Part shown: one piece after another, positions 5,899-20,405 of the stretch
How the letters are laid out: each line of letters opens with the position of its first letter
Numbering within the stretch: position 1 is the first letter of the stretch
Assembly (NCBI GenBank): GCA_026686805.1
Contig: GCA_026686805.1_3949.2
Direction: 5' to 3' (one strand)
Length of the DNA stretch: 22,359 nucleotides
DNA from: a phage
Made by a program: the position numbers and the translations under genes
The notes under the pieces: generated by a model
Told to the model about the DNA's origin: nothing
The model's input: only the letters and a program-made list of their open reading frames with translations
Databases searched by the model: none

Positions 5899-6075
5899 TT
5901 ACTTATTAAACATTTTACCAGAACCACCACACATAGGGCAACAACCTGCTCTTGTATACCCTTCTCCGTTACAGTAGTCACACTTCTTGTGTTCTGCAAA
6001 GTACTTACAAAGAAGATAAACAAGGACTGCTACACTACCAAGTGACAGTAAAATTTCTACCCAATATGCTTGCAT
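5899..6075 (-). CDS. Small membrane protein with C-terminal DnaJ-type zinc-finger repeats (58 aa); not in ORF track
   Basis: Hand-translated: MQAYWVEILLSLGSVAVLVYLLCKYFAEHKKCDYCNGEGYTRAGCCPMCGGSGKMFNK. One hydrophobic helix, then two CxxCxGxG units (CDYCNGEG, CPMCGGSG). GAGGTGAG Shine-Dalgarno 4-11 nt upstream of the ATG. Overlaps the 3' end of the 6057..6392 ORF by 19 nt in another frame. Confidence 0.45.
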   Translation of the reverse strand: MQAYWVEILLSLGSVAVLVYLLCKYFAEHKKCDYCNGEGYTRAGCCPMCGGSGKMFNK

Positions 6076-6392
6076 GACTCACCTCTCATGTTTTTGTAAA
6101 GGATAAAGCTTCTGTCATGGACGATACTTGTAGATACTGCAAAGTTACTTTCAAGCATCTGTTTGTTTGGATTGTAGAAGCTTTCTTTAAACTCGTCAAG
6201 CGCAAATTGGTGATTGTCTGGAAGACCTTTTACACAAACCTTTATTGTGATTGCTGCTGCAATCTTGCCAGTCAGTTCTTCTTTAGCTGCTACTAAAATT
6301 TTGTTAAGGAACTTTTTACCATCTTCAGGTTTCTTAATGTTCTCCCAACGCTCTTCTAAGACAATGTTGATGTTCATCTCTTTGATTTTCAT
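6057..6392 (-). CDS. Hypothetical protein (111 aa)
   Basis: ATG start confirmed. First gene after the 6404..6431 terminator and candidate promoter. No recognisable motif. Confidence 0.5.
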   Translation of the reverse strand: MKIKEMNINIVLEERWENIKKPEDGKKFLNKILVAAKEELTGKIAAAITIKVCVKGLPDNHQFALDEFKESFYNPNKQMLESNFAVSTSIVHDRSFILYKNMRGESCKHIG

Positions 6393-6403
6393 AATCTTCT
6401 CCA

Positions 6404-6431
6404 GAAATTAAAAAGGCTCCCGTAGGAGCCT
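6404..6431 (-). terminator. Intrinsic terminator hairpin (minus RNA AGGCUCC-UACG-GGAGCCU followed by UUUUUAAUUUC)
   Basis: Plus 6414-6431 is aggctcc-cgta-ggagcct, the same stem as the 483-500 hairpin with a different tetraloop. U-tract follows on the minus transcript. Immediately downstream of the NAMPT-like gene. Confidence 0.6.
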
Positions 6432-6434
6432 CTT

Positions 6435-6462
6435 ATCATATACTTTTAAAGCTGCTTGTCAA
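6435..6462 (-). promoter_or_regulatory. Candidate sigma70-like promoter (TTGACA-N16-TATGAT) overlapping the 3' end of the NAMPT-like gene
   Basis: Minus strand: aatatTGACAagcagctttaaaagtaTATGATaagaggctcc; -35 at 6462..6457, -10 at 6440..6435. The transcript would begin inside the terminator hairpin. Confidence 0.3.
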
Positions 6463-8227
6463 TATTATTTCGAATATCGCCAAGAGTTGTGTAGCCGAAC
6501 TGCTCAGAGTCGCTAAAGACTAAACGTAAAGCACAAGCTGGATGCTCAAGTGCATCTGCAAAACTCTGGAATCCATAGCCATCTACAGCTTTCAGATTCT
6601 CACCATCCCACATAGGGGCTACACCACCAAAAGCAGACTTCTTAACACCACTATCTGTTTTAGGGTCTTTTGCAAGCATAATCTCTTTACCACCAATGCT
6701 TGCAAGAGTTGCTTTGACAGCAAATGCAAAGGTGTCACGAGTCATGTACTGGTAAGTGTAGGAACCTACACCAAACACTACGTTAGAGCTTGCAAAACCC
6801 ATTTCATACAAACGCTTAAGGATTTCGTTTGCACGTTCCAACGTGATAGAGTCACCATAGATAAGGCCAATGTGCTCATCCAGTACCTTAAAACCTTTAG
6901 AGTTGATAGTCCCTCCAAAGATGTTGTACAGTGTCTTAATAGCTCCATCAATCTCAGCTACAGGGCGTGTTACAACGTTTGCAGAACCAACCATATAAGC
7001 GTTCTTCAACATCACTGTATCAGCAACTTCAAAGTCTTCTCTGTCAACAACCATTTCATAGCCTTCTGACAGTAGCCATCCAGCAATACCATAGTTGATG
7101 TTTTCAAGCTTCATGTTCAGAACAGCATTCAACATTGTGTCGCTGGCTTCCAGCTTGCTAAGGTGCTCATAATAAGCCTTTTTAGCACACTCTAAGTGGA
7201 TTGCTTTATAACCTGTGACAATATGTACAGGGTCTCCAGAGTCAGGACGAATTACCAGTTTACCGTCACGTTCCATAATCTCTTTGCGAAGTGCTGGTAA
7301 GATTTCTGACACAGTTCTCCAGAAGTTATAAGTGTCTGAAACAACACTTGCAATACCAGTTGGGTAAGTTTCTGTTAAGAAACGACGGAAGGTTTGTAAC
7401 TCACCTTTAAAGCGTCTTTCTTCTTCAATCAACTCATTACCACCTTCCCAAGCAATGTTTGCACACATTACAGAGTGCTCAGTGGCTGGTACAGAACTAC
7501 CAATATCAGAAATTGGGTAAGACTGTCCATAGATGCGTTTAGCCGTGTATACAGCAGGGAAACTATCAGTTCCTTTAAAGCTGGTTAAGTGACCTACAGC
7601 ATTAAATGCGTCATCGGTAAAGCCGGACATACCACGCATAGCAAAGTCATGGCACTGATAAGGTAAATGTAAGTCATTGTCGCAAGTAAGGTCAGCCCAC
7701 TTCTTACAGATACGTTTGTAGTGCAATGCAATAGTTGCAATGGTACAAGCCTTCCAAATCTCAGCAGAGAAAGCATCTTCCAGATACCCCGCTACCCAAT
7801 GGAAACCTGAAACAGTGTTCTGGAAGACAATTATTGGTACACGCATAGGAACAACTGTGCCTTCTTCTACAGCGTATACTTCAACTGGCAGATAACCTAA
7901 GTCGTGAAGTGCTTCCCAATGCTCTCGACCAATAGCATCTTTACCCAGAACACCGTTCATGACTTCTAATATTTCGTCAATTGCTTCTTTTTTGTCACGT
8001 TCAAAGAAGGTGGCGTTCCAGTGGTCTATCAGGTAATCTTTAACAAAACGTTGAATACCAAAAGCAACTACACCATCAATTGCTAAGGGGCTGTTAAACC
8101 ATTTGTCACTACGTGGTGTCAGGTTGAACATCAAGTACTCTGTTGCGCTAGGATACTGGTAGATGTGACCAGATTTGTAAGCATCTGCGTTTAAACCTGC
8201 TGGTACTGCATAAAGTGATTTAGTCAT
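6446..8227 (-). CDS. Nicotinamide phosphoribosyltransferase-family protein (NAMPT-like; candidate NARP1 Namat), 593 aa
   Basis: ATG start confirmed. N-terminal ...NADAYKSGHIYQYPSATEY...FNLTPR tracks the NAMPT N-terminal signature as I recall it from human NAMPT ([27 protein letters not shown]). Same orientation as, and 45 nt downstream of, the PRPP-synthetase-like gene. Confidence 0.8.
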   Translation of the reverse strand: MTKSLYAVPAGLNADAYKSGHIYQYPSATEYLMFNLTPRSDKWFNSPLAIDGVVAFGIQRFVKDYLIDHWNATFFERDKKEAIDEILEVMNGVLGKDAIGREHWEALHDLGYLPVEVYAVEEGTVVPMRVPIIVFQNTVSGFHWVAGYLEDAFSAEIWKACTIATIALHYKRICKKWADLTCDNDLHLPYQCHDFAMRGMSGFTDDAFNAVGHLTSFKGTDSFPAVYTAKRIYGQSYPISDIGSSVPATEHSVMCANIAWEGGNELIEEERRFKGELQTFRRFLTETYPTGIASVVSDTYNFWRTVSEILPALRKEIMERDGKLVIRPDSGDPVHIVTGYKAIHLECAKKAYYEHLSKLEASDTMLNAVLNMKLENINYGIAGWLLSEGYEMVVDREDFEVADTVMLKNAYMVGSANVVTRPVAEIDGAIKTLYNIFGGTINSKGFKVLDEHIGLIYGDSITLERANEILKRLYEMGFASSNVVFGVGSYTYQYMTRDTFAFAVKATLASIGGKEIMLAKDPKTDSGVKKSAFGGVAPMWDGENLKAVDGYGFQSFADALEHPACALRLVFSDSEQFGYTTLGDIRNNIDKQL

Positions 8228-8247
8228 CTTTTAATCTCTCTCAAAAT

Positions 8248-8263
8248 GGGGCTTTTAAGCCCC
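8248..8263 (-). other. GC-rich hairpin GGGGC-UUAAAA-GCCCC between the PRPS-like and NAMPT-like genes; no clean U-tract
   Basis: Perfect 5-bp inverted repeat ggggc/gcccc with a 6-nt loop. Downstream minus RNA is AUUUUGAGAGAG (the Shine-Dalgarno of the NAMPT-like gene). Same design as the rIIA/rIIB hairpin. Confidence 0.45.
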
Positions 8264-8272
8264 TATAAACTT

Positions 8273-9154
8273 TCAATCAAGGTTTGCTACAGTAACTTGA
8301 CTGTAATGTGTTAAGCCACGGTCTTTAGCTTCGCCTAAAGAGTTTGTAGTGTAAATATGGTCGATACCATTGTCAAGAAGGTTTTCAACATCTTTAGAGA
8401 AGATACCATGTGTTACATAAAGTTCCACACGTTTTGCACCTGCTTCACGAAGATGTTTCGCTGCTTCTATGAAGGTTCGACCACCATCACAGATATCATC
8501 CAGAATCATAACGGTTTTATCTGTCAAATCAACATCATCAAGGATTCGCATACCAGTAATTTCACCAGTCTTAAGGTTACGCACCTTAGACATTGTGATA
8601 TATGGTTTATCCACCTCTTTAGCGGTCTCTGCAACCTTCTTAGCAGCACCTGCATCTGGGGCTACTAAGTAATCAACCAGTGGGTCATTTGCATAGTGGA
8701 CTGCAATCTCCTTTTGAGGAATACTCTGGAAGCAGTTAAACAGGTTATCTGGAACGCAACTGTGAGGGTCAACTGCACAGACTGCACCAAATCCCATTGC
8801 ATTTACCTGTTTAGCAAAAACCTTTAAAGCTGCTGCGTCGCCTTTAAACATGTGACGGTCATATCGTGCATTTGGTAAGTAGTAAAAGATGACAGTCTTT
8901 AAAGCATAATCATGAGGAATTAAATCATCAATTGCTTCTTTAGCAAGTGCCACAGCAAACAAAGTGTCCTTATCATAACCTTTTACAATCATAATCACAT
9001 TGTTGATGGATGATGCTGCATAAGCAGTAAAATCAACAAACTCTGGCGAAAAGTGTCCACCAATCTCACCAGAAGGGAATTGGACGATGTTAAACTCTTC
9101 TTCATGAGTCCCTTTAGTTGGTGAATGAACTGTAACACGGATAGATGTTTTCAT
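8273..9154 (-). CDS. Ribose-phosphate pyrophosphokinase-family protein (PRPP synthetase-like; candidate NARP1 Adps), about 293 aa
   Basis: Track ORF starts at a TTG (9169); ATG at 9154 (MKTSIRVTVH) has a GAGAGAGAAAACT Shine-Dalgarno. PRPS-type motifs present: VDPHS, VAPDAGAAKKV and the PRPP-binding loop ILDDICDGGRT. Confidence 0.8.
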   Translation of the reverse strand: MKTSIRVTVHSPTKGTHEEEFNIVQFPSGEIGGHFSPEFVDFTAYAASSINNVIMIVKGYDKDTLFAVALAKEAIDDLIPHDYALKTVIFYYLPNARYDRHMFKGDAAALKVFAKQVNAMGFGAVCAVDPHSCVPDNLFNCFQSIPQKEIAVHYANDPLVDYLVAPDAGAAKKVAETAKEVDKPYITMSKVRNLKTGEITGMRILDDVDLTDKTVMILDDICDGGRTFIEAAKHLREAGAKRVELYVTHGIFSKDVENLLDNGIDHIYTTNSLGEAKDRGLTHYSQVTVANLD

Positions 9155-9165
9155 AGTTTTCTCTC

Positions 9166-9444
9166 TCAATCAAAAGTTACGTTTGTTACTGCCATTGCAG
9201 ATTTGCATTTTGCAGGGTCTACAACGTGATAAAGTACACTACAGTTACCTGTGCTGTCTGGTACAGGCTTTACCCATTGCTGCTTTATAGTTGGCTCTCC
9301 TAAGTCTTTGTAAGAGCCATCTGTAAAGTTGTTTACCATCTCAAGTGCAATTGGTTCTGGAACATGACCACGTATCATGTACATCTCACAACCATTACCA
9401 CCTTCACTGACTAATGGTAAAATTTCCCACTTTTCTTTAGCCAT
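9166..9444 (-). CDS. Hypothetical protein (92 aa)
   Basis: ATG start confirmed. ATGGCTAA-type 8-nt overlap with the upstream gene; ends 11 nt before the PRPS-like ATG. No recognisable motif. Confidence 0.5.
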   Translation of the reverse strand: MAKEKWEILPLVSEGGNGCEMYMIRGHVPEPIALEMVNNFTDGSYKDLGEPTIKQQWVKPVPDSTGNCSVLYHVVDPAKCKSAMAVTNVTFD

Positions 9445-9952
9445 TATAAGTTGCCCTATAAACTGTCTCGAACTTCAACAGGAGAGATATTGCCAAAGCT
9501 GTATAGTTGTTGTCAAGCACGTCTGGCATATTATTTTTGATATATTTCTCTTGCTCTTCATAGGTCATCTTAGGAATACTTAGGAGGCTATCTCCTTGCT
9601 TCTGGTTATCAGCTTTAGTTTGGATAAACCAGTTCGCACAGTGATGTTCACCACCTTTTGTAACAGGTTTGTGGTGGCCTAGTGTAAATGTTTGCTTACC
9701 CGTATACCTGCAAAGATTGTTCAGTGTTGCAATGGTGTTCTTCACAACACACCATTCATACAGGTTATCTATTGTGTAGTGTGGGTAATAACGGACAAGC
9801 GCTCTTTCACGGAAGTTATCACGATTCCAAAGAACCATGTGATTAGAATTTGAAGGGTCATATTTGTGGGAGTCTATAAATTCTTGACGCTCATCAAAGC
9901 TGAGTCTTAGAACTGACATTGCAACCGAACGTTTCAGGTTTGACAGATACAT
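9437..9952 (-). CDS. Hypothetical protein (171 aa), possible HNH-like nuclease motif
   Basis: ATG start confirmed. GHHKPVTKGGEHHCANW resembles the HH...GG...N core of HNH nucleases, but the final His is not evident. First gene after the 9962..9990 terminator. Confidence 0.5.
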   Translation of the reverse strand: MYLSNLKRSVAMSVLRLSFDERQEFIDSHKYDPSNSNHMVLWNRDNFRERALVRYYPHYTIDNLYEWCVVKNTIATLNNLCRYTGKQTFTLGHHKPVTKGGEHHCANWFIQTKADNQKQGDSLLSIPKMTYEEQEKYIKNNMPDVLDNNYTALAISLLLKFETVYRATYNG

Positions 9953-9961
9953 TTTACCTCC

Positions 9962-9990
9962 AAAATAAAAAGGGAACCTTTACAGTTCCC
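9962..9990 (-). terminator. Intrinsic terminator hairpin (minus RNA GGGAAC-loop-GUUCCC followed by UUUUUAUUUUGG)
   Basis: Plus 9972-9990 is gggaac-ctttaca-gttccc (6-bp stem), preceded on plus by aaaataaaaa. Sits between the stop of the 10004..10324 gene and the 9952 ATG. Confidence 0.55.
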
Positions 9991-10003
9991 CTATAGTATC
10001 TGT

Positions 10004-11979: not shown

Positions 11980-14124
11980 TTACATAGAGACTCTATCACG
12001 AATCTCAGCGATTTTTGCATCGTTCATTCGGGATTCACCTTTAATCTTAGTCCATCCAAGATACCCACACACCCTGTTAATCACAGAGATATCATGTGAA
12101 TGGCAAACCTCGCATTCTTCAACATCAGCCTTTGGTCTGTTACCACAATGTTCACAGATTGCTAAGTCAAAGTTAAGCCCCTGATAGAAACCTTTCAACA
12201 TCCCTCTTGTGATACAACTTTTAAGTGCTGTTAAGTTTTCTGGGTTAGCTACCCTGACATACTGGATTCTCCCACCTCTACAGATATGGAAGAATGGCTC
12301 TTCTAAGTCCTGCTTCTCAAATGGTGAGATGTCTGCTGCAACATTCATATGGAAACTGTTTGTAAAGTATTCCTTATCAGAAACACCTTTGATAACGCCA
12401 AACATATCTCTGAACTGTTTTAGCTGAGTTCCGCAAAGTGATTCTGCTGGAGTACCATAGACGGCATATAAGAAGCCATCTTCATTTTTAAACTCTTCAG
12501 TTTTCATGTTGATGTATGCCAGAACATCGTATGCAAAACTACAGCTTCCAACTTCATGAAGTCGTTTACCTTCAGCAAGAACAGATAGCTCATCAAGCGC
12601 AGTAACCCCAAAAGAAGCTGTGAAGGACTTCACAATATCCCAACCAACCTTGTCAGTAGGTTTCTTAGTTCCTTTGTACAGACCACCTTGTGTGAATGCA
12701 AGAGGGTTAGAACTTGCTGGCATATTAGCAATCATTTCGTAGCGTTTCTTGTGGAAGCTGCGAATCATCTCTAGGTACTTATCAAGCTCTTTCCAGAAAT
12801 CTAAACCACTCTCTCTAGAATACTGGTAAATCATCGGTAAGTTCAAAGATACAGCACCAATGTTAGCACGACCAACATAGAACTCTTCCCCATCCTCATT
12901 AAGATATGGAGATAAGAAGGCTCTGCAACCCATCGGTGAAATTACCTTGCCAGAACGCTCAAAAGCCTCTGCTACAGCACCATGACCAGATACACTTAAG
13001 AAGTCTGGATACATTGCTTTAGAGCAACACTCAATAGCTTTACTGTACAGGTGACCTTGACAGATATTTTCATCATGTCTCTTCTGGTCATAAATATAAA
13101 CCAGTTTAGGAAATACAACAGGCTTCTTGCTCTTACCTTGTCCATTCATACGAACATCTAGGAGAGTACTTGCAATCATGTATTGTAATCGGTTGTCTTC
13201 ATTAGACATGTCTGAGTCAAGTAACCCAAATGTTAAAGTTGTGAATGCAAAATCCCCACGACTACAAGGTACAGTGTTTAGTTTCATTTCAAGTGACTGG
13301 AAACCTTGAGTTAATTCAATCTGTAACTGCTCCATGACATAATTATGGTAATGTTCTTTAGGAATACCATAAGATGTTGCTTTCTCAGCATGATAGCGTA
13401 GAGACTTCTTAGCATACGGTACAAGTACCTTGTCAATCTCTGCTAAAGTAAAGCCACCAAATTGCTGTGCAGTTGCTGAAAGAACTACGTCACCAATAAC
13501 TTGTAAGGCCGACAGCACAGACTTCGGTTCACAATATTCGATGCCAGACATTTCAAAGCCACCTTTCAGTACTTTACCAATGTCAAACAGACAACAGTTA
13601 ATACCACCAAAAATTAGGTCTCTTAAGTCATGGATGTAGATAAACCCTTTTTCAATGGCTTCAAGTTCCTCTGGTGTTAAATGGTACTGTTTAAAGATTT
13701 CTTTAGTCAGATAACCACGAATAATTGAACCTTTTGTAGAAATTAAACTGCTGTCAAAGTTAGCATTCTCTCTGTCACCTAAGAAGAGTGTATCTTTGGT
13801 CTTCTGGTAAAGTTCATCCCAATTTTGAGCAACTTCTTTACGGTAATTTCTATATGTTGAGTAAGACTCATAAATCTCGTGATTGACTTCTGCCAAAGCA
13901 CCCTCAACAATACTGTGAATATCATTTACTGAAATGAGCAAATTATTCTGTTTAGTAGATTTTACCAGAATCCTCATAAATGCTGACTCAAGAGCTTGGG
14001 TAACATCTGGTGGGAGTTCTTTATAACCAACCCTATTAGCTGACTTTGTGACTGCTGCTAAAACTTTTTTGATATCAGGTTCTTCGAGTGAGCCATTCTT
14101 TTTAATAATCTGTACTTTGTTCAT
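11980..14124 (-). CDS. nrdD: Anaerobic ribonucleoside-triphosphate reductase, class III (714 aa)
   Basis: ATG start confirmed. C-terminal glycyl-radical motif RVCGYLG, preceded by a Cys cluster (CEHCGN ... CEVCHSH). Reading frame is contiguous, so no intron is evident. Confidence 0.9.
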   Translation of the reverse strand: MNKVQIIKKNGSLEEPDIKKVLAAVTKSANRVGYKELPPDVTQALESAFMRILVKSTKQNNLLISVNDIHSIVEGALAEVNHEIYESYSTYRNYRKEVAQNWDELYQKTKDTLFLGDRENANFDSSLISTKGSIIRGYLTKEIFKQYHLTPEELEAIEKGFIYIHDLRDLIFGGINCCLFDIGKVLKGGFEMSGIEYCEPKSVLSALQVIGDVVLSATAQQFGGFTLAEIDKVLVPYAKKSLRYHAEKATSYGIPKEHYHNYVMEQLQIELTQGFQSLEMKLNTVPCSRGDFAFTTLTFGLLDSDMSNEDNRLQYMIASTLLDVRMNGQGKSKKPVVFPKLVYIYDQKRHDENICQGHLYSKAIECCSKAMYPDFLSVSGHGAVAEAFERSGKVISPMGCRAFLSPYLNEDGEEFYVGRANIGAVSLNLPMIYQYSRESGLDFWKELDKYLEMIRSFHKKRYEMIANMPASSNPLAFTQGGLYKGTKKPTDKVGWDIVKSFTASFGVTALDELSVLAEGKRLHEVGSCSFAYDVLAYINMKTEEFKNEDGFLYAVYGTPAESLCGTQLKQFRDMFGVIKGVSDKEYFTNSFHMNVAADISPFEKQDLEEPFFHICRGGRIQYVRVANPENLTALKSCITRGMLKGFYQGLNFDLAICEHCGNRPKADVEECEVCHSHDISVINRVCGYLGWTKIKGESRMNDAKIAEIRDRVSM

Positions 14125-18610: not shown

Positions 18611-18926
18611 GGTATTTCTCCAAGTTTCTTTTTAGATACAACCAACCATAGTCAGTCCTTTCTACACCCATAAAGAGTGGAGCCATCACAACTTTACCGA
18701 AAGTATTCCTGTGTTGGCAGATTTCAAAGGAATACTCTTTCTCAATATCAATCCCGTATTTGTACAGGACTGCTTTTAAAACTTGTTCATTGTCCAGAAG
18801 TGTATCTGGAGTCTCACCATATTTTTCTAGTAACGGGTCATTCATAAACACCGTCATAGAAATATTGTAGTTTGAGAAGTGGCTCTTCTGAGCCACACCC
18901 TCTTTATTAATGTTCTGTGAATCCAT
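18603..18926 (-). CDS. Hypothetical protein (about 107 aa from ATG)
   Basis: Track start at 18935 is a TTG; ATG at 18926 (MDSQNINKEG...). Weak Shine-Dalgarno, so the start is uncertain. Confidence 0.45.
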   Translation of the reverse strand: MDSQNINKEGVAQKSHFSNYNISMTVFMNDPLLEKYGETPDTLLDNEQVLKAVLYKYGIDIEKEYSFEICQHRNTFGKVVMAPLFMGVERTDYGWLYLKRNLEKYRV

Positions 18927-19662
18927 TATAACCAACCCCTTTTAACCAGCACTTCAGGTTATTAGCATCATAATTCAGTTTCGGGTATGAGGTTACATGG
19001 AACTGCTCACCATCATAGTAGACAATATCTGCAATCCATAGTCCATTCTCTTTACAGAAATCTTTATCTGCTTTAGAGGTAATTGGATTAACTTCTACAA
19101 AACCATCTACACCCAAATCCTTTAAGCTACCTACAATACCTTTGCAGATAACGCATGTGTCAGATACTACCACAAAAAGTTCTTGGCTTTCAAGCTCTAC
19201 AATGTATTCACCAAGCTGCACTTTAGGGAGATTAGACTGTTTCATAATCTTCCCATCAGCTTCACGAACAATCGCATACCACTCTTTACCATCAACTACT
19301 GACATTCTAATAATACACTCTTGACCAGTGCGCTTTTCAATGTCTGCAAGACGTTTTAAAGCTTCTTCATAGTTATCTGTGTACTTCAGGTCATTATTAT
19401 GGCAAACAGCTTCCATAGCACCATTATGGTCATGTTGTGACAGATAAATCAAACCGTCAAGAACATATTGCAAATCTGCCTGAGCATCCAGTGTCTCAAT
19501 GGGGTCTTTCTCTTCAATTGCTTTTACAAGCTCTTTTGCTTCTTCAAGCATACATAGAGATTGAGATTTCAAAGATTCCCAATACTCATCACTGTAAGGT
19601 TGCTTTTGAGTTTTTCCACAACGAAGATTCCAGTTTTTTACTGATTCTCTTGAGTTAAACAT
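18907..19662 (-). CDS. MazG-like nucleotide pyrophosphohydrolase domain protein with C-terminal CxxC (thioredoxin-fold-like) extension, 251 aa
   Basis: ATG start confirmed, with AAGGAG 5 nt upstream. N-terminal half has MazG/HisE-like acidic helix motifs (LEEAKELVKAIEE ... DAQADLQYVLDGLIYL). C-terminal half has FVVVSDTCVICKGIVGSL, a redoxin-like CxxC after a beta-strand. Confidence 0.45.
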   Translation of the reverse strand: MFNSRESVKNWNLRCGKTQKQPYSDEYWESLKSQSLCMLEEAKELVKAIEEKDPIETLDAQADLQYVLDGLIYLSQHDHNGAMEAVCHNNDLKYTDNYEEALKRLADIEKRTGQECIIRMSVVDGKEWYAIVREADGKIMKQSNLPKVQLGEYIVELESQELFVVVSDTCVICKGIVGSLKDLGVDGFVEVNPITSKADKDFCKENGLWIADIVYYDGEQFHVTSYPKLNYDANNLKCWLKGVGYNGFTEH

Positions 19663-19907: not shown

Positions 19908-20405
19908 TTAAGCACAATTTGCTTTCATTACCTTATGGATTCTTTTTTCAGCATCTTCATAAGTTTCTTTAGTAATAAACTTAATTGCTGCAATATTGGC
20001 ATTGTAGAAGAGTCTGAGCTTCGAGTCAATCCTTTTTGTCATTACATCGAATTTATGTTGAAGGTTTGCTTCACCATAGACTAGGCCACCTTTTGTGTAG
20101 TAGGTTTGAATAATGTAAAAGTCAAAAAATTCTTTTCCAAAGCTCTCAATATCTTTTTTAATATACTCAGAAGAAGTCTCGTAAGTCATCCAATCACTTT
20201 CCTTAGTGACTACCTTCTTCCGAGTCTTACCAGCAACTTTTCTTTTGGTCACACTGTTAAGCTGTTTCTTTCCGATATAATATTGTCCAGTCTTCTTACA
20301 GTGTACTAAATAGACAAAGCCAAAATGTTTAGTGGGGTCAACTTCCCCACATAAAGATACCCAATGACCATAGGTGGGGCAATTGCCAAATCCTTTAATC
20401 TTCAT
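19908..20405 (-). CDS. GIY-YIG-like nuclease domain protein (165 aa)
   Basis: ATG start confirmed. FGFVYLVHCKKTGQYYIGKK matches the GIY-(x10-11)-YIG architecture; downstream basic stretch and conserved Glu/Asn candidates. Too short for a typical Seg-type homing endonuclease with DNA-binding domain. Confidence 0.45.
   Translation of the reverse strand: MKIKGFGNCPTYGHWVSLCGEVDPTKHFGFVYLVHCKKTGQYYIGKKQLNSVTKRKVAGKTRKKVVTKESDWMTYETSSEYIKKDIESFGKEFFDFYIIQTYYTKGGLVYGEANLQHKFDVMTKRIDSKLRLFYNANIAAIKFITKETYEDAEKRIHKVMKANCA

Follow-up and report, generated by a model that had tools for sequence, protein, structure and literature searches.

The gene pair at positions 6446 to 9154 of the analysed phage DNA, a stretch of 22,359 nucleotides (hereafter the window), is very likely a Felix O1-type copy of NARP1, an NAD+-rebuilding pathway formed by an Adps of the Prs family and a Namat of the NAMPT family. 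The lineage of this operon is the founding example of NARP1, and its recognition here is thus a rediscovery, a point that was missed in the preliminary description of the sequence. The NARP1 preprint of Osterman et al. reportedly appeared later in Nature (2024). The pair is already known from Tables S1/S2 of the discovery paper, which list the near-identical alleles of wV8 and HY02, Adps being entered with a Namat neighbour and Namat as “Adps-associated” (10.1101/2024.02.11.579819). Based on the order of a Prs-like and a NAMPT-like gene and on the lack of an NMNAT, the preliminary description had proposed Adps and Namat, and this proposal is supported by collinearity with phage Bas63, by protein identities of 98% (Namat) and 78% (Adps), by the clamp residues and by the tabulated alleles.

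Both open reading frames and their coordinates were reproduced (Table 1), and the Prs-like gene does lie upstream, as described, when the sequence is read from right to left, both ORFs being on the minus strand. The two genes directly adjoin each other on the same strand, separated by the 45-nt spacer reported before; the neighbourhood criterion of the discovery paper is within 10 genes. The same 3-kb arrangement was found in 258 phage records (228 at a coverage of at least 80%), so the pairing of adps and namat is not due to chance. The window is a Felixounavirus sequence with 96.8% nucleotide identity to HY02, and it is collinear with Bas63 (JohannRWettstein; genus Felixounavirus, accession MZ501086) at 91–97% nucleotide identity. 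As in Bas63, the operon is located between the nrdG side and rIIA, and the ORFs flanking it fall into the unknown-function PHROGs 4726, 3500 and 4262. Scans of the window for tRNAs and against Rfam gave no hits. Genes of nucleotide metabolism (nrdAB, nrdDG, MazG-like) surround the operon.

Table 1. Features of the adps-namat locus in window coordinates.
Feature	Position	Strand	Details
adps	8273-9154	minus	293 aa; predicted ADP-ribose pyrophosphokinase, Prs family
Divergent allele patch, Adps N-terminal domain	8662-9141	minus	aa ~5-165; nucleotide comparison with Bas63
Adps Lys190, catalytic-loop lysine	8585-8587	minus	alignment column of SpβL1 Adps K162
Adps DDICDGGRT, phosphoribosyl-binding loop	8474-8500	minus	aa 219-227; sequence motif
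Intergenic spacer	8228-8272	minus	45 nt; hairpin 8248-8263, U-tract 8243-8246, namat ribosome-binding site 8235-8242
namat	6446-8227	minus	593 aa; predicted nicotinamide ADP-ribose transferase, NAMPT family
Namat selectivity-clamp loop (SCL) with K42-W43	8072-8119	minus	aa 37-52; aligns with SpβL1 T35-E42
Namat His251, catalytic histidine in ATEHSVM	7475-7477	minus	invariant in two alignments
Second, smaller variable Namat insertion	7409-7453	minus	~14 aa, aa ~259-273; after catalytic-His helix; alignment
Namat R327-P-D329, ribose-binding catalytic residues	7241-7249	minus	align with SpβL1 R306/D308
Inserted α/β mini-domain of Namat	6947-7210	minus	aa ~340-427, about 85 aa; after RPDSGDP strand
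Namat selectivity-clamp helix motif (SCH) GSYTYQYMTRD	6734-6766	minus	aa 488-498; published Namat signature
Intrinsic terminator at operon end	6411-6434	minus	10-bp stem then UUUUUAAUUU

The adps gene starts with ATG at 9154 (ribosome-binding site GAGAGAGA), and its product contains the previously described motifs VDPHS (aa 128–132) and DDICDGGRT. Its assignment to the Prs family stands (Pfam Pribosyltran/Pribosyl_synth; PHROG 619, 3e-96; NCBIfam TIGR01251). Taken together with the GenBank annotations and the Pfam, PHROG and NCBIfam names of both proteins, this would imply ordinary salvage, in which a true PRPP synthetase feeds a true Nampt, and the resulting NMN is turned into NAD+ by the host through NadR or PncC. 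Against such a role, the protein passes only the subfamily-level model TIGR01251 (124 bits, cut-off 113) and falls short of each of the nine Prs equivalog cut-offs by about 3-fold or more, the best score reaching 104.7 bits where 296 would be required. Its identity is 78% to Bas63_0079 (293/293 aa) and 97.9% to the Adps of HY02, and the wV8 sequence is nearly the same; by its identity to listed Adps and its failure against the Prs equivalogs, the predicted protein belongs to the phage Adps clade. Lys190 aligns with K162 of SpβL1 Adps, of which the K162A mutant served as inactive enzyme. The DDICDGGRT loop is common to the Adps of Bas63 and of Klebsiella 0507-KN2-1, and the corresponding loop reads DDLSSFGGT in SpβL1 Adps and DDMIDTGGT in E. 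coli Prs. We rejected its arginine as a universal Adps signature, since the loop reads SSFGGT in SpβL1 Adps and DGGAT in a Pseudomonas Adps. Among PDB entries, 4TWB, a class III Prs from archaea, is the best relative by sequence (E 3.5e-18); the sequence search of the PDB returned no Adps structure, and the literature search gave no structural paper on Adps.

The partner protein was correctly placed in the NAMPT family (Pfam NAPRTase and NAMPT_N; PHROG 448, 7e-202; NCBIfam PRK09198) and is 98% identical (582/593) to Bas63_0080. Its best PDB sequence matches are the SpβL1 Namat entries 9W5W/9W5X (E 3e-127), which are also the top Foldseek matches of its AF2 model (pLDDT 93.5) at a TM of 0.95. 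A comparison of both proteins by profile or structure with Prs/NAMPT and with Adps/Namat had been suggested, and it came out on the side of the latter, with failed Prs equivalogs and SpβL1 Namat as the top structural match. Namat enzymes have been described with an extended SCL with an adenine-stacking Arg at the third position, or with Lys/Tyr followed by a stacking residue. Here, K42-W43 occupy the loop, with K42 at the position of SpβL1 R40; this Lys-then-stacking-residue arrangement is the same as that described for Bas63 Namat. In the alignment, the SCL of Nampt-type phage enzymes is 7–10 residues shorter, and Nampt-type sequences at the SCH read GGGLLQQSDRD or GGGLLQEVTRD; the Namat SCH motif was absent from the Nampts of the Vibrio phage K575 and the Klebsiella phage Roth26, which have no Adps neighbour. 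Judged by these alignments, the clamp signature is of the Namat and not of the Nampt type, which again argues against ordinary salvage. Namat F195, R198 and D221 match SpβL1 F189, R192 and D215, and the exchanges R306G and R306A abolished the activity of SpβL1 Namat. The predicted catalytic core is intact in both proteins (Adps K190; Namat F195, R198, D221, H251, R327 and D329). For the pair, the comparisons thus show orthology, synteny and the retention of all functional residues named here.

As stated in the preliminary description, the window lacks an NMNAT: a Pfam scan of every ORF of at least 70 aa detected no CTP_transf_like, Nudix, Macro or RyR domain, and all ORFs of at least 80 aa are devoid of an HxGH motif. 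The genome-wide search for an NMNAT, which would have spoken for NMN synthesis, was run on the complete relatives Bas63 and HY02, and tblastn found none when queried with NadD and NadR of E. coli and with a NadR homologue from a KVP40-like phage (no hit better than E 1.1; 6e-13 for the positive control). The predicted operon is the basic two-gene NARP1, with no Macro-phosphatase or RyR accessory gene in the window. We also considered the ORF at 19908–20405, labelled “NAD synthetase” in HY02 (PHROG 447), as a third NAD gene and rejected it: it encodes a SegE-type GIY-YIG endonuclease (Pfam 9e-28; GFVYLV…YYIGKK motif), and no NadE signal was found in it.

The function of the pair can be projected from published work. 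NARP1 was discovered by deleting genes 79–80 of Bas63 (Osterman et al., 10.1101/2024.02.11.579819), which lowered plating on SIR2-HerA about 20-fold, whereas the wild-type phage restores NAD+ (10.1101/2024.02.11.579819). ADPR-PP was detected only with wild-type Bas63 plus the defence system, and SpβL1 Adps converted ADPR and ATP to ADPR-PP (10.1101/2024.02.11.579819). Enzymology of Adps and Namat has been published for the SpβL1, DyoEdafos and Paenibacillus homologues. Bas63 Adps could not be purified (10.1101/2024.02.11.579819), so its chemistry is derived from metabolomics in vivo and from a homologue sharing 30% identity with the window Adps. By homology with the SpβL1 enzymes, we infer the following activities for the window pair. 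A NADase defence such as SIR2-HerA, DSR, Thoeris or similar would cleave NAD+ to ADP-ribose and nicotinamide. Adps would then use ATP to attach pyrophosphate at C1'' of the ribose in ADP-ribose, yielding ADPR-pyrophosphate (ADPR-PP), and Namat would join ADPR-PP and nicotinamide to NAD+ and pyrophosphate, with neither an NMN intermediate nor an NMNAT. The preference of Namat for ADPR-PP over PRPP would be brought about by a clamp stacking on the adenine ring, to which one protomer contributes the loop K42-W43 and the other Y490/Y494 from its GSYTYQYMTRD helix. Relief of defence and formation of the ADPR-PP metabolite, published for the Bas63 orthologue, are expected of the window pair by orthology.

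The same literature bears on the two alternative functions. Ordinary salvage would draw on the observation that Namat in vitro still turns PRPP and nicotinamide into NMN. However, Bas63 overcomes SIR2-HerA even in a ΔpncC ΔnadR host (10.1101/2024.02.11.579819), the SpβL1 Adps homologue yielded no Prs-type product in the assay, and neither the window nor the complete Bas63 and HY02 genomes revealed a phage NMNAT, making salvage highly improbable. A dual role, in which NARP1 dominates under NADase attack and Namat additionally uses host PRPP for NMN to raise NAD+ during normal infection, is unlikely, if clearly less so. The residual PRPP-dependent NMN synthesis of wild-type Namat reaches about half the level of human Nampt in vitro and is unaffected by clamp mutations, and the position of the operon among nucleotide-metabolism genes would also fit. 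On the other hand, Namat strongly prefers ADPR-PP when given both substrates, ADPR-PP was seen only in the presence of the defence system, and NMN production has not been linked to any phenotype. NAD+ rebuilding by NARP1 is our preferred reading.

The two genes are probably co-transcribed, and their transcription appears to end at the terminator that closes the operon, which is kept in Bas63 and HY02. The spacer does contain the previously noted hairpin, although a modest one (GGGGCU-UUAA-AGCCCC with UUUU after it; centroid energy −11.5 kcal/mol; z relative to shuffled sequences −2.0). Bas63 and HY02 have the identical stem, and a single loop base is changed in Bas63; the FADO spacer is without such a hairpin. 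We infer a possible role of the hairpin and U-tract in partial attenuation or in stabilisation.

The extra length of about 100 aa described before was confirmed, SpβL1 Namat having 491 aa and the window protein 593 aa. The excess is mainly composed of a ~72-aa insertion following the RPDSGDP strand and the ~14-aa insertion following the catalytic His. Most of it belongs to an ordered mini-domain of about 85 aa, which is also present in Bas63 Namat; SpβL1 Namat has neither insertion. No fold relative of the mini-domain was detectable, and we found no discussion of it in the literature consulted. Since it is inserted right after the ribose-binding RPD strand of a (β/α)-barrel topology, it should be situated on the catalytic face. 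It is conceivable, albeit quite unlikely, that it represents a functional module that docks Adps to channel labile ADPR-PP, gates the active-site entrance or shields Namat from a host inhibitor. SpβL1 Namat, the only one studied for structure and Adps interaction, showed no stable Adps-Namat complex.

The N-terminal domain of Adps differs markedly from that of Bas63. The divergent patch shows 45–77% nucleotide identity to Bas63 between flanks of 90–100%, with sharp boundaries, and aa 1–165 are 66% identical. Over 254 phage records, patch identity is bimodal, with 152 records at ≥90%, 98 at 60–80% and four in between. By this comparison, the domain is a second, old allele, distinct from the experimentally studied Bas63 allele. 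The co-circulation of two discrete classes in otherwise similar genomes, with hardly any intermediates, and the sharp edges of the patch could point to an allele that differs in function (regulation, partner contacts, or escape from an Adps-targeting host factor). We consider this a long shot, because a dN/dS of 0.10 with a saturated dS of 2.56 indicates old divergence under purifying selection and not an arms-race signature, and because both alleles retain every residue that does not vary among Adps and Prs (F26, G29, E30, R97, D99, R100 and H131). If the mini-domain does act as a module, it would, together with the two-allele Adps N-terminal domain, make coliphage NARP1 a physically coupled variant of the pathway.

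Overall, gene order alone, a Prs-like beside a NAMPT-like gene with no NMNAT, correctly picked out a real anti-defence pathway, and standard annotations still mislead (“ribose-phosphate pyrophosphokinase”, “nicotinamide phosphoribosyltransferase”, even “nadR”). A phage with the two-gene form should resist defences that release unmodified ADP-ribose, such as SIR2-HerA, DSR and Thoeris effectors. No rescue is expected from aRES-type defence, which leaves ADPR-1''-phosphate (ADPR-1P), because the operon has neither a Macro-phosphatase nor a RyR gene. This predicted range could guide the selection of Felix O1-like phages for therapeutic or diagnostic use. The current understanding is unchanged, with the Adps allele and the Namat mini-domain as modest follow-ups.

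Comparing the operon to known systems, the closest is NARP1 of Bas63 (bas63_0079-0080), with the same genus, genomic position, gene lengths (293 and 593 aa), 45-nt spacer, hairpin stem, terminator, clamp residues and Namat mini-domain. It differs in the Adps N-terminal domain, which is of the other allele class, and in the extra 345-nt ORF bas63_0081 just downstream of namat, which is missing from the window. SpβL1 NARP1 (9W5X, 9W5W; NAR 2026, PMC12774641) is likewise a two-gene adps-namat operon with a matching Namat fold, and the catalytic Lys (K162/K190), the Arg (R306/R327) and the SCH motif GS-aromatic-T-Y-Q-Y-x-TRD are conserved. However, identities are only ~30% for Adps and ~38–45% for Namat, the SCL of SpβL1 stacks with R40 instead of K42-W43, and the Adps loops differ (DDLSSFGGT versus DDICDGGRT). 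The extended pathways NARP1-AP (Adps-Adpp-Namat, Vibrio phage Gary) and RyDEP-extended NARP1 (phage DyoEdafos) share the core Adps and Namat, but the window lacks the Macro-domain phosphatase of the former and the RyR-domain glycosidase of the latter. In NARP2 (Nampt and bifunctional Nmnat, Vibrio phage KVP40 type), a phage NAMPT-family enzyme also restores NAD+ against depletion defences. In contrast to the window and its complete relatives, which have no NMNAT, NARP2 requires NMNAT and PRPP, and, unlike in the window Namat, the clamp of KVP40-like Nampt reads GGGLLQ and the SCL is short. Finally, cellular Prs (class I of E. coli, class III of archaea) and Nampt/NadV share the folds and the phosphoribosyl/pyrophosphoryl transfer chemistry, whereas E. 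coli Prs is only 24% identical to the window Adps and differs in its motifs (DLHA versus DPHS; catalytic loop DKRRPRANVSQV versus K-x-R-N-x-x-TGEI; DTGGT versus DGGRT) and, according to published work on homologues, in its substrate, which is ribose-5-phosphate for Prs and would be ADP-ribose for Adps.

Both proteins of the gene pair can be assigned unambiguously to their families by profile matches, the first to the Prs family (Pfam Pribosyltran/Pribosyl_synth; PHROG 619; NCBIfam TIGR01251) and the second to the NAMPT family (Pfam NAPRTase/NAMPT_N; PHROG 448; NCBIfam PRK09198). In the preliminary description, this pair had been proposed as NARP1, the phage pathway in which Adps and Namat rebuild NAD+, and the ORFs and coordinates agree with its account of adjacent same-strand genes and a hairpin-bearing spacer; the motifs quoted for the Prs-like protein are likewise present (VDPHS, aa 128-132; DDICDGGRT, aa 219-227). 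The ORF list extends adps to a TTG at 9169, but the ATG at 9154 agrees with the starts annotated in the phages Bas63 and HY02. The spacer hairpin is modest, folding little better than shuffled controls (z = −2.0). Both its stem and the terminator after namat are conserved in these two phages. The two small ORFs upstream of adps, which may be co-transcribed with NARP1, are conserved there as well.

Coordinates of the NARP1 operon and of other features discussed (window positions)
Feature	Position	Strand	Description
58-aa ORF	5899-6075	minus	zinc-ribbon motif
Terminator after namat	6411-6434	minus	10-bp stem and U-run; far stronger than spacer hairpin
namat	6446-8227	minus	ORF; NAMPT family, 593 aa
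Namat mini-domain	6947-7210	minus	ordered, ~85 aa
Spacer	8228-8272	minus	45 nt; 6-bp GC-rich hairpin 8248-8263, then UUUU and GAGAGAGA ribosome-binding site
adps	8273-9154	minus	ORF; Prs family, 293 aa; ATG start at 9154 preceded by GAGAGAGA
Divergent adps patch	8662-9141	minus	
Small ORF, PHROG 4726	9166-9444	minus	ends 11 nt before adps start
Small ORF, PHROG 3500	9437-9952	minus	weak HNH-like match (2.6e-6)
Terminator-like site	9970-9992		upstream of both small ORFs
nrdD	11980-14124	minus	714 aa, uninterrupted
MazG-like ORF	18907-19662	minus	251 aa
SegE-type ORF	19908-20405	minus	165 aa

The 3-kb adps-namat region matches 258 phage records, nearly all of them Felix O1-like (from E. coli, Salmonella, Shigella and Citrobacter), with HY02 as the closest (96.8% nucleotide identity). 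NARP1 itself was discovered by deleting "genes 79-80" of the BASEL phage Bas63 (JohannRWettstein), a Felixounavirus (bioRxiv 10.1101/2024.02.11.579819). In Bas63 (MZ501086), bas63_0079 (882 nt), bas63_0080 (1782 nt) and the 45-nt spacer have exactly the lengths found here, and the entire 22-kb window is collinear with this genome in reverse orientation (91-97% nucleotide identity), from the rIIA/rIIB side through nrdG, nrdD, nrdB and nrdA to the exonuclease. Without any gaps, Namat is 98% (582/593) and Adps 78% (228/293) identical between the two. The window-type proteins of wV8 and HY02 are already listed in the discovery paper, Adps in Table S1 ("Namat within 10 genes: Yes") and Namat in Table S2 ("Adps-associated").

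For Bas63, loss of both genes reduces plating on SIR2-HerA about 20-fold; the wild-type phage restores NAD+, ADPR-pyrophosphate (m/z 720.010) was detected only when wild-type phage and defence system were combined, and the effect remains in a ΔpncC ΔnadR host (bioRxiv 10.1101/2024.02.11.579819). The SpβL1 homologues convert ADPR and ATP to ADPR-PP (Adps), and ADPR-PP and nicotinamide to NAD+ (Namat) (bioRxiv 10.1101/2024.02.11.579819). NARP1 of phage FADO was also validated by deletion.

The alternative, ordinary PRPP and NMN synthesis by a Prs and a Nampt, was weighed using the features that separate Namat from Nampt in the 2026 structural paper (PMC12774641). The window protein carries GSYTYQYMTRD (aa 488-498), and its K42-W43 sits at the position of SpβL1 R40 in the selectivity-clamp loop (SCL), the same Lys-then-stacker arrangement as described for Bas63 Namat. 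As a contrast set, we used the phage Nampt genes of Vibrio K575 (KVP40-like) and Klebsiella Roth26, neither of which has a Prs/Adps within 6 kb; these have GGGLLQQSDRD and GGGLLQEVTRD, respectively, and an SCL 7-10 residues shorter. Because these Adps-less Nampts differ and FADO Namat carries the signature (GSFTYQYNTRD), the clamp test discriminates between the two enzymes, and by sequence the window protein falls on the Namat side. All Namat catalytic residues are conserved (F195, R198, D221, H251, R327, D329), and the AF2 model (pLDDT 93.5) best matches the SpβL1 Namat crystals (TM 0.95, E 1.8e-51), with H. ducreyi NadV and mammalian NAMPT ranking lower. The Prs-like protein passed only the broad TIGR01251 subfamily model, falling short of all Prs equivalog cut-offs by at least threefold, and its K190 aligns with K162 of SpβL1 Adps, whose mutation was used to inactivate that enzyme.

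Ordinary NMN synthesis was further addressed by searching for an NMNAT. As the preliminary description had noted, the window contains none: Pfam scans of all ORFs of at least 70 aa detected no nucleotidyltransferase, Nudix, Macro or RyR domain, and no HxGH motif occurs in ORFs of at least 80 aa. The check was extended to full genomes: used as tblastn queries, NadD and NadR from E. coli and a KVP40-like phage NadR homologue reached no better than E = 1.1 in the window, Bas63 or HY02, both genomes being complete (positive control, 6e-13). Taken together, Bas63 orthology, the clamp signature and the missing NMNAT support the proposed NARP1 over PRPP and NMN synthesis. The SegE-type ORF is labelled "NAD synthetase" in HY02 ("putative") and PHROG 447; this function was ruled out, as the ORF shows no NadE signal and is a GIY-YIG endonuclease (PF19835, 9e-28; GFVYLV…YYIGKK). 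The label looks like a propagated mis-annotation and could mislead NAD-gene counts in these phages.

The lower identity of Adps is concentrated in an N-terminal patch with 45-77% nucleotide identity to Bas63, flanked by 90-100%. Across 254 phage records, patch identity is bimodal: 152 show at least 90% (window type), 98 show 60-80% (Bas63/Felix O1 type) and four lie between. Synonymous divergence is saturated (dS 2.56; flanks 0.23-0.34), dN/dS is 0.10, the recombination boundaries are sharp, and no residue invariant across Adps and Prs is lost. We interpret the patch as an old allele moved by recombination under purifying selection rather than as fast diversification. Bas63, the phage tested genetically, has the minority allele; the dimorphism is absent from the NARP1 papers compared here.

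Namat contains a mini-domain, lacking in the crystallised SpβL1 Namat and in FADO Namat, for which no sequence or fold relative was detected; at its site, other phage lineages hold insertions of differing length and sequence. This mini-domain, possibly with the dimorphic Adps domain, might provide coupling or regulation in the coliphage pathway that the SpβL1 model system lacks, but this seems unlikely.

Regarding the surroundings, bas63_0081 (hypothetical, 345 nt; 25509-25853 in the compared Bas63 sequence, L006) directly follows Bas63 namat and is missing from the window (~6390-6395), and Bas63 nrdD (joined CDS, L006 16631-19517) is split by the homing-endonuclease gene bas63_0068, while the window nrdD is uninterrupted. 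The 58-aa ORF (CDYCNGEGY…CPMCGGSG, CxxCxGxG-like; weak DnaJ central-domain match, 6.5e-3) has a Bas63 counterpart annotated as putative membrane protein, and a MazG-like nucleotide pyrophosphohydrolase (PHROG 2144, 6e-101; Pfam PRA-PH, 6e-6) adjoins the nrd genes. Namat-type proteins of ~496 aa with GS[FY]TYQYNTRD and Adps-like proteins of ~285 aa are encoded on Mb-scale contigs of enterobacterial chromosomes, among them Cronobacter, Klebsiella michiganensis, Phytobacter and Superficieibacter (database matches P0069-P0120, P0191-P0240). These matches suggest chromosomal NARP1 in Enterobacteriaceae; in bacteria, the pathway has to date been demonstrated in Paenibacillus (NAR 2026).

Since no NMNAT, Macro or RyR was found, the operon is the basic two-gene NARP1, which, going by the NARP1-AP work, is predicted to give no protection against aRES-type defence. 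It differs from NARP2 (Nampt and Nmnat), an identity we reject, as well as from the phosphatase-extended NARP1-AP and the RyDEP-extended form. Judged from its sequence, it is a same-genus orthologue of the founding NARP1 operon and, as its alleles are also catalogued, the feature is already known.
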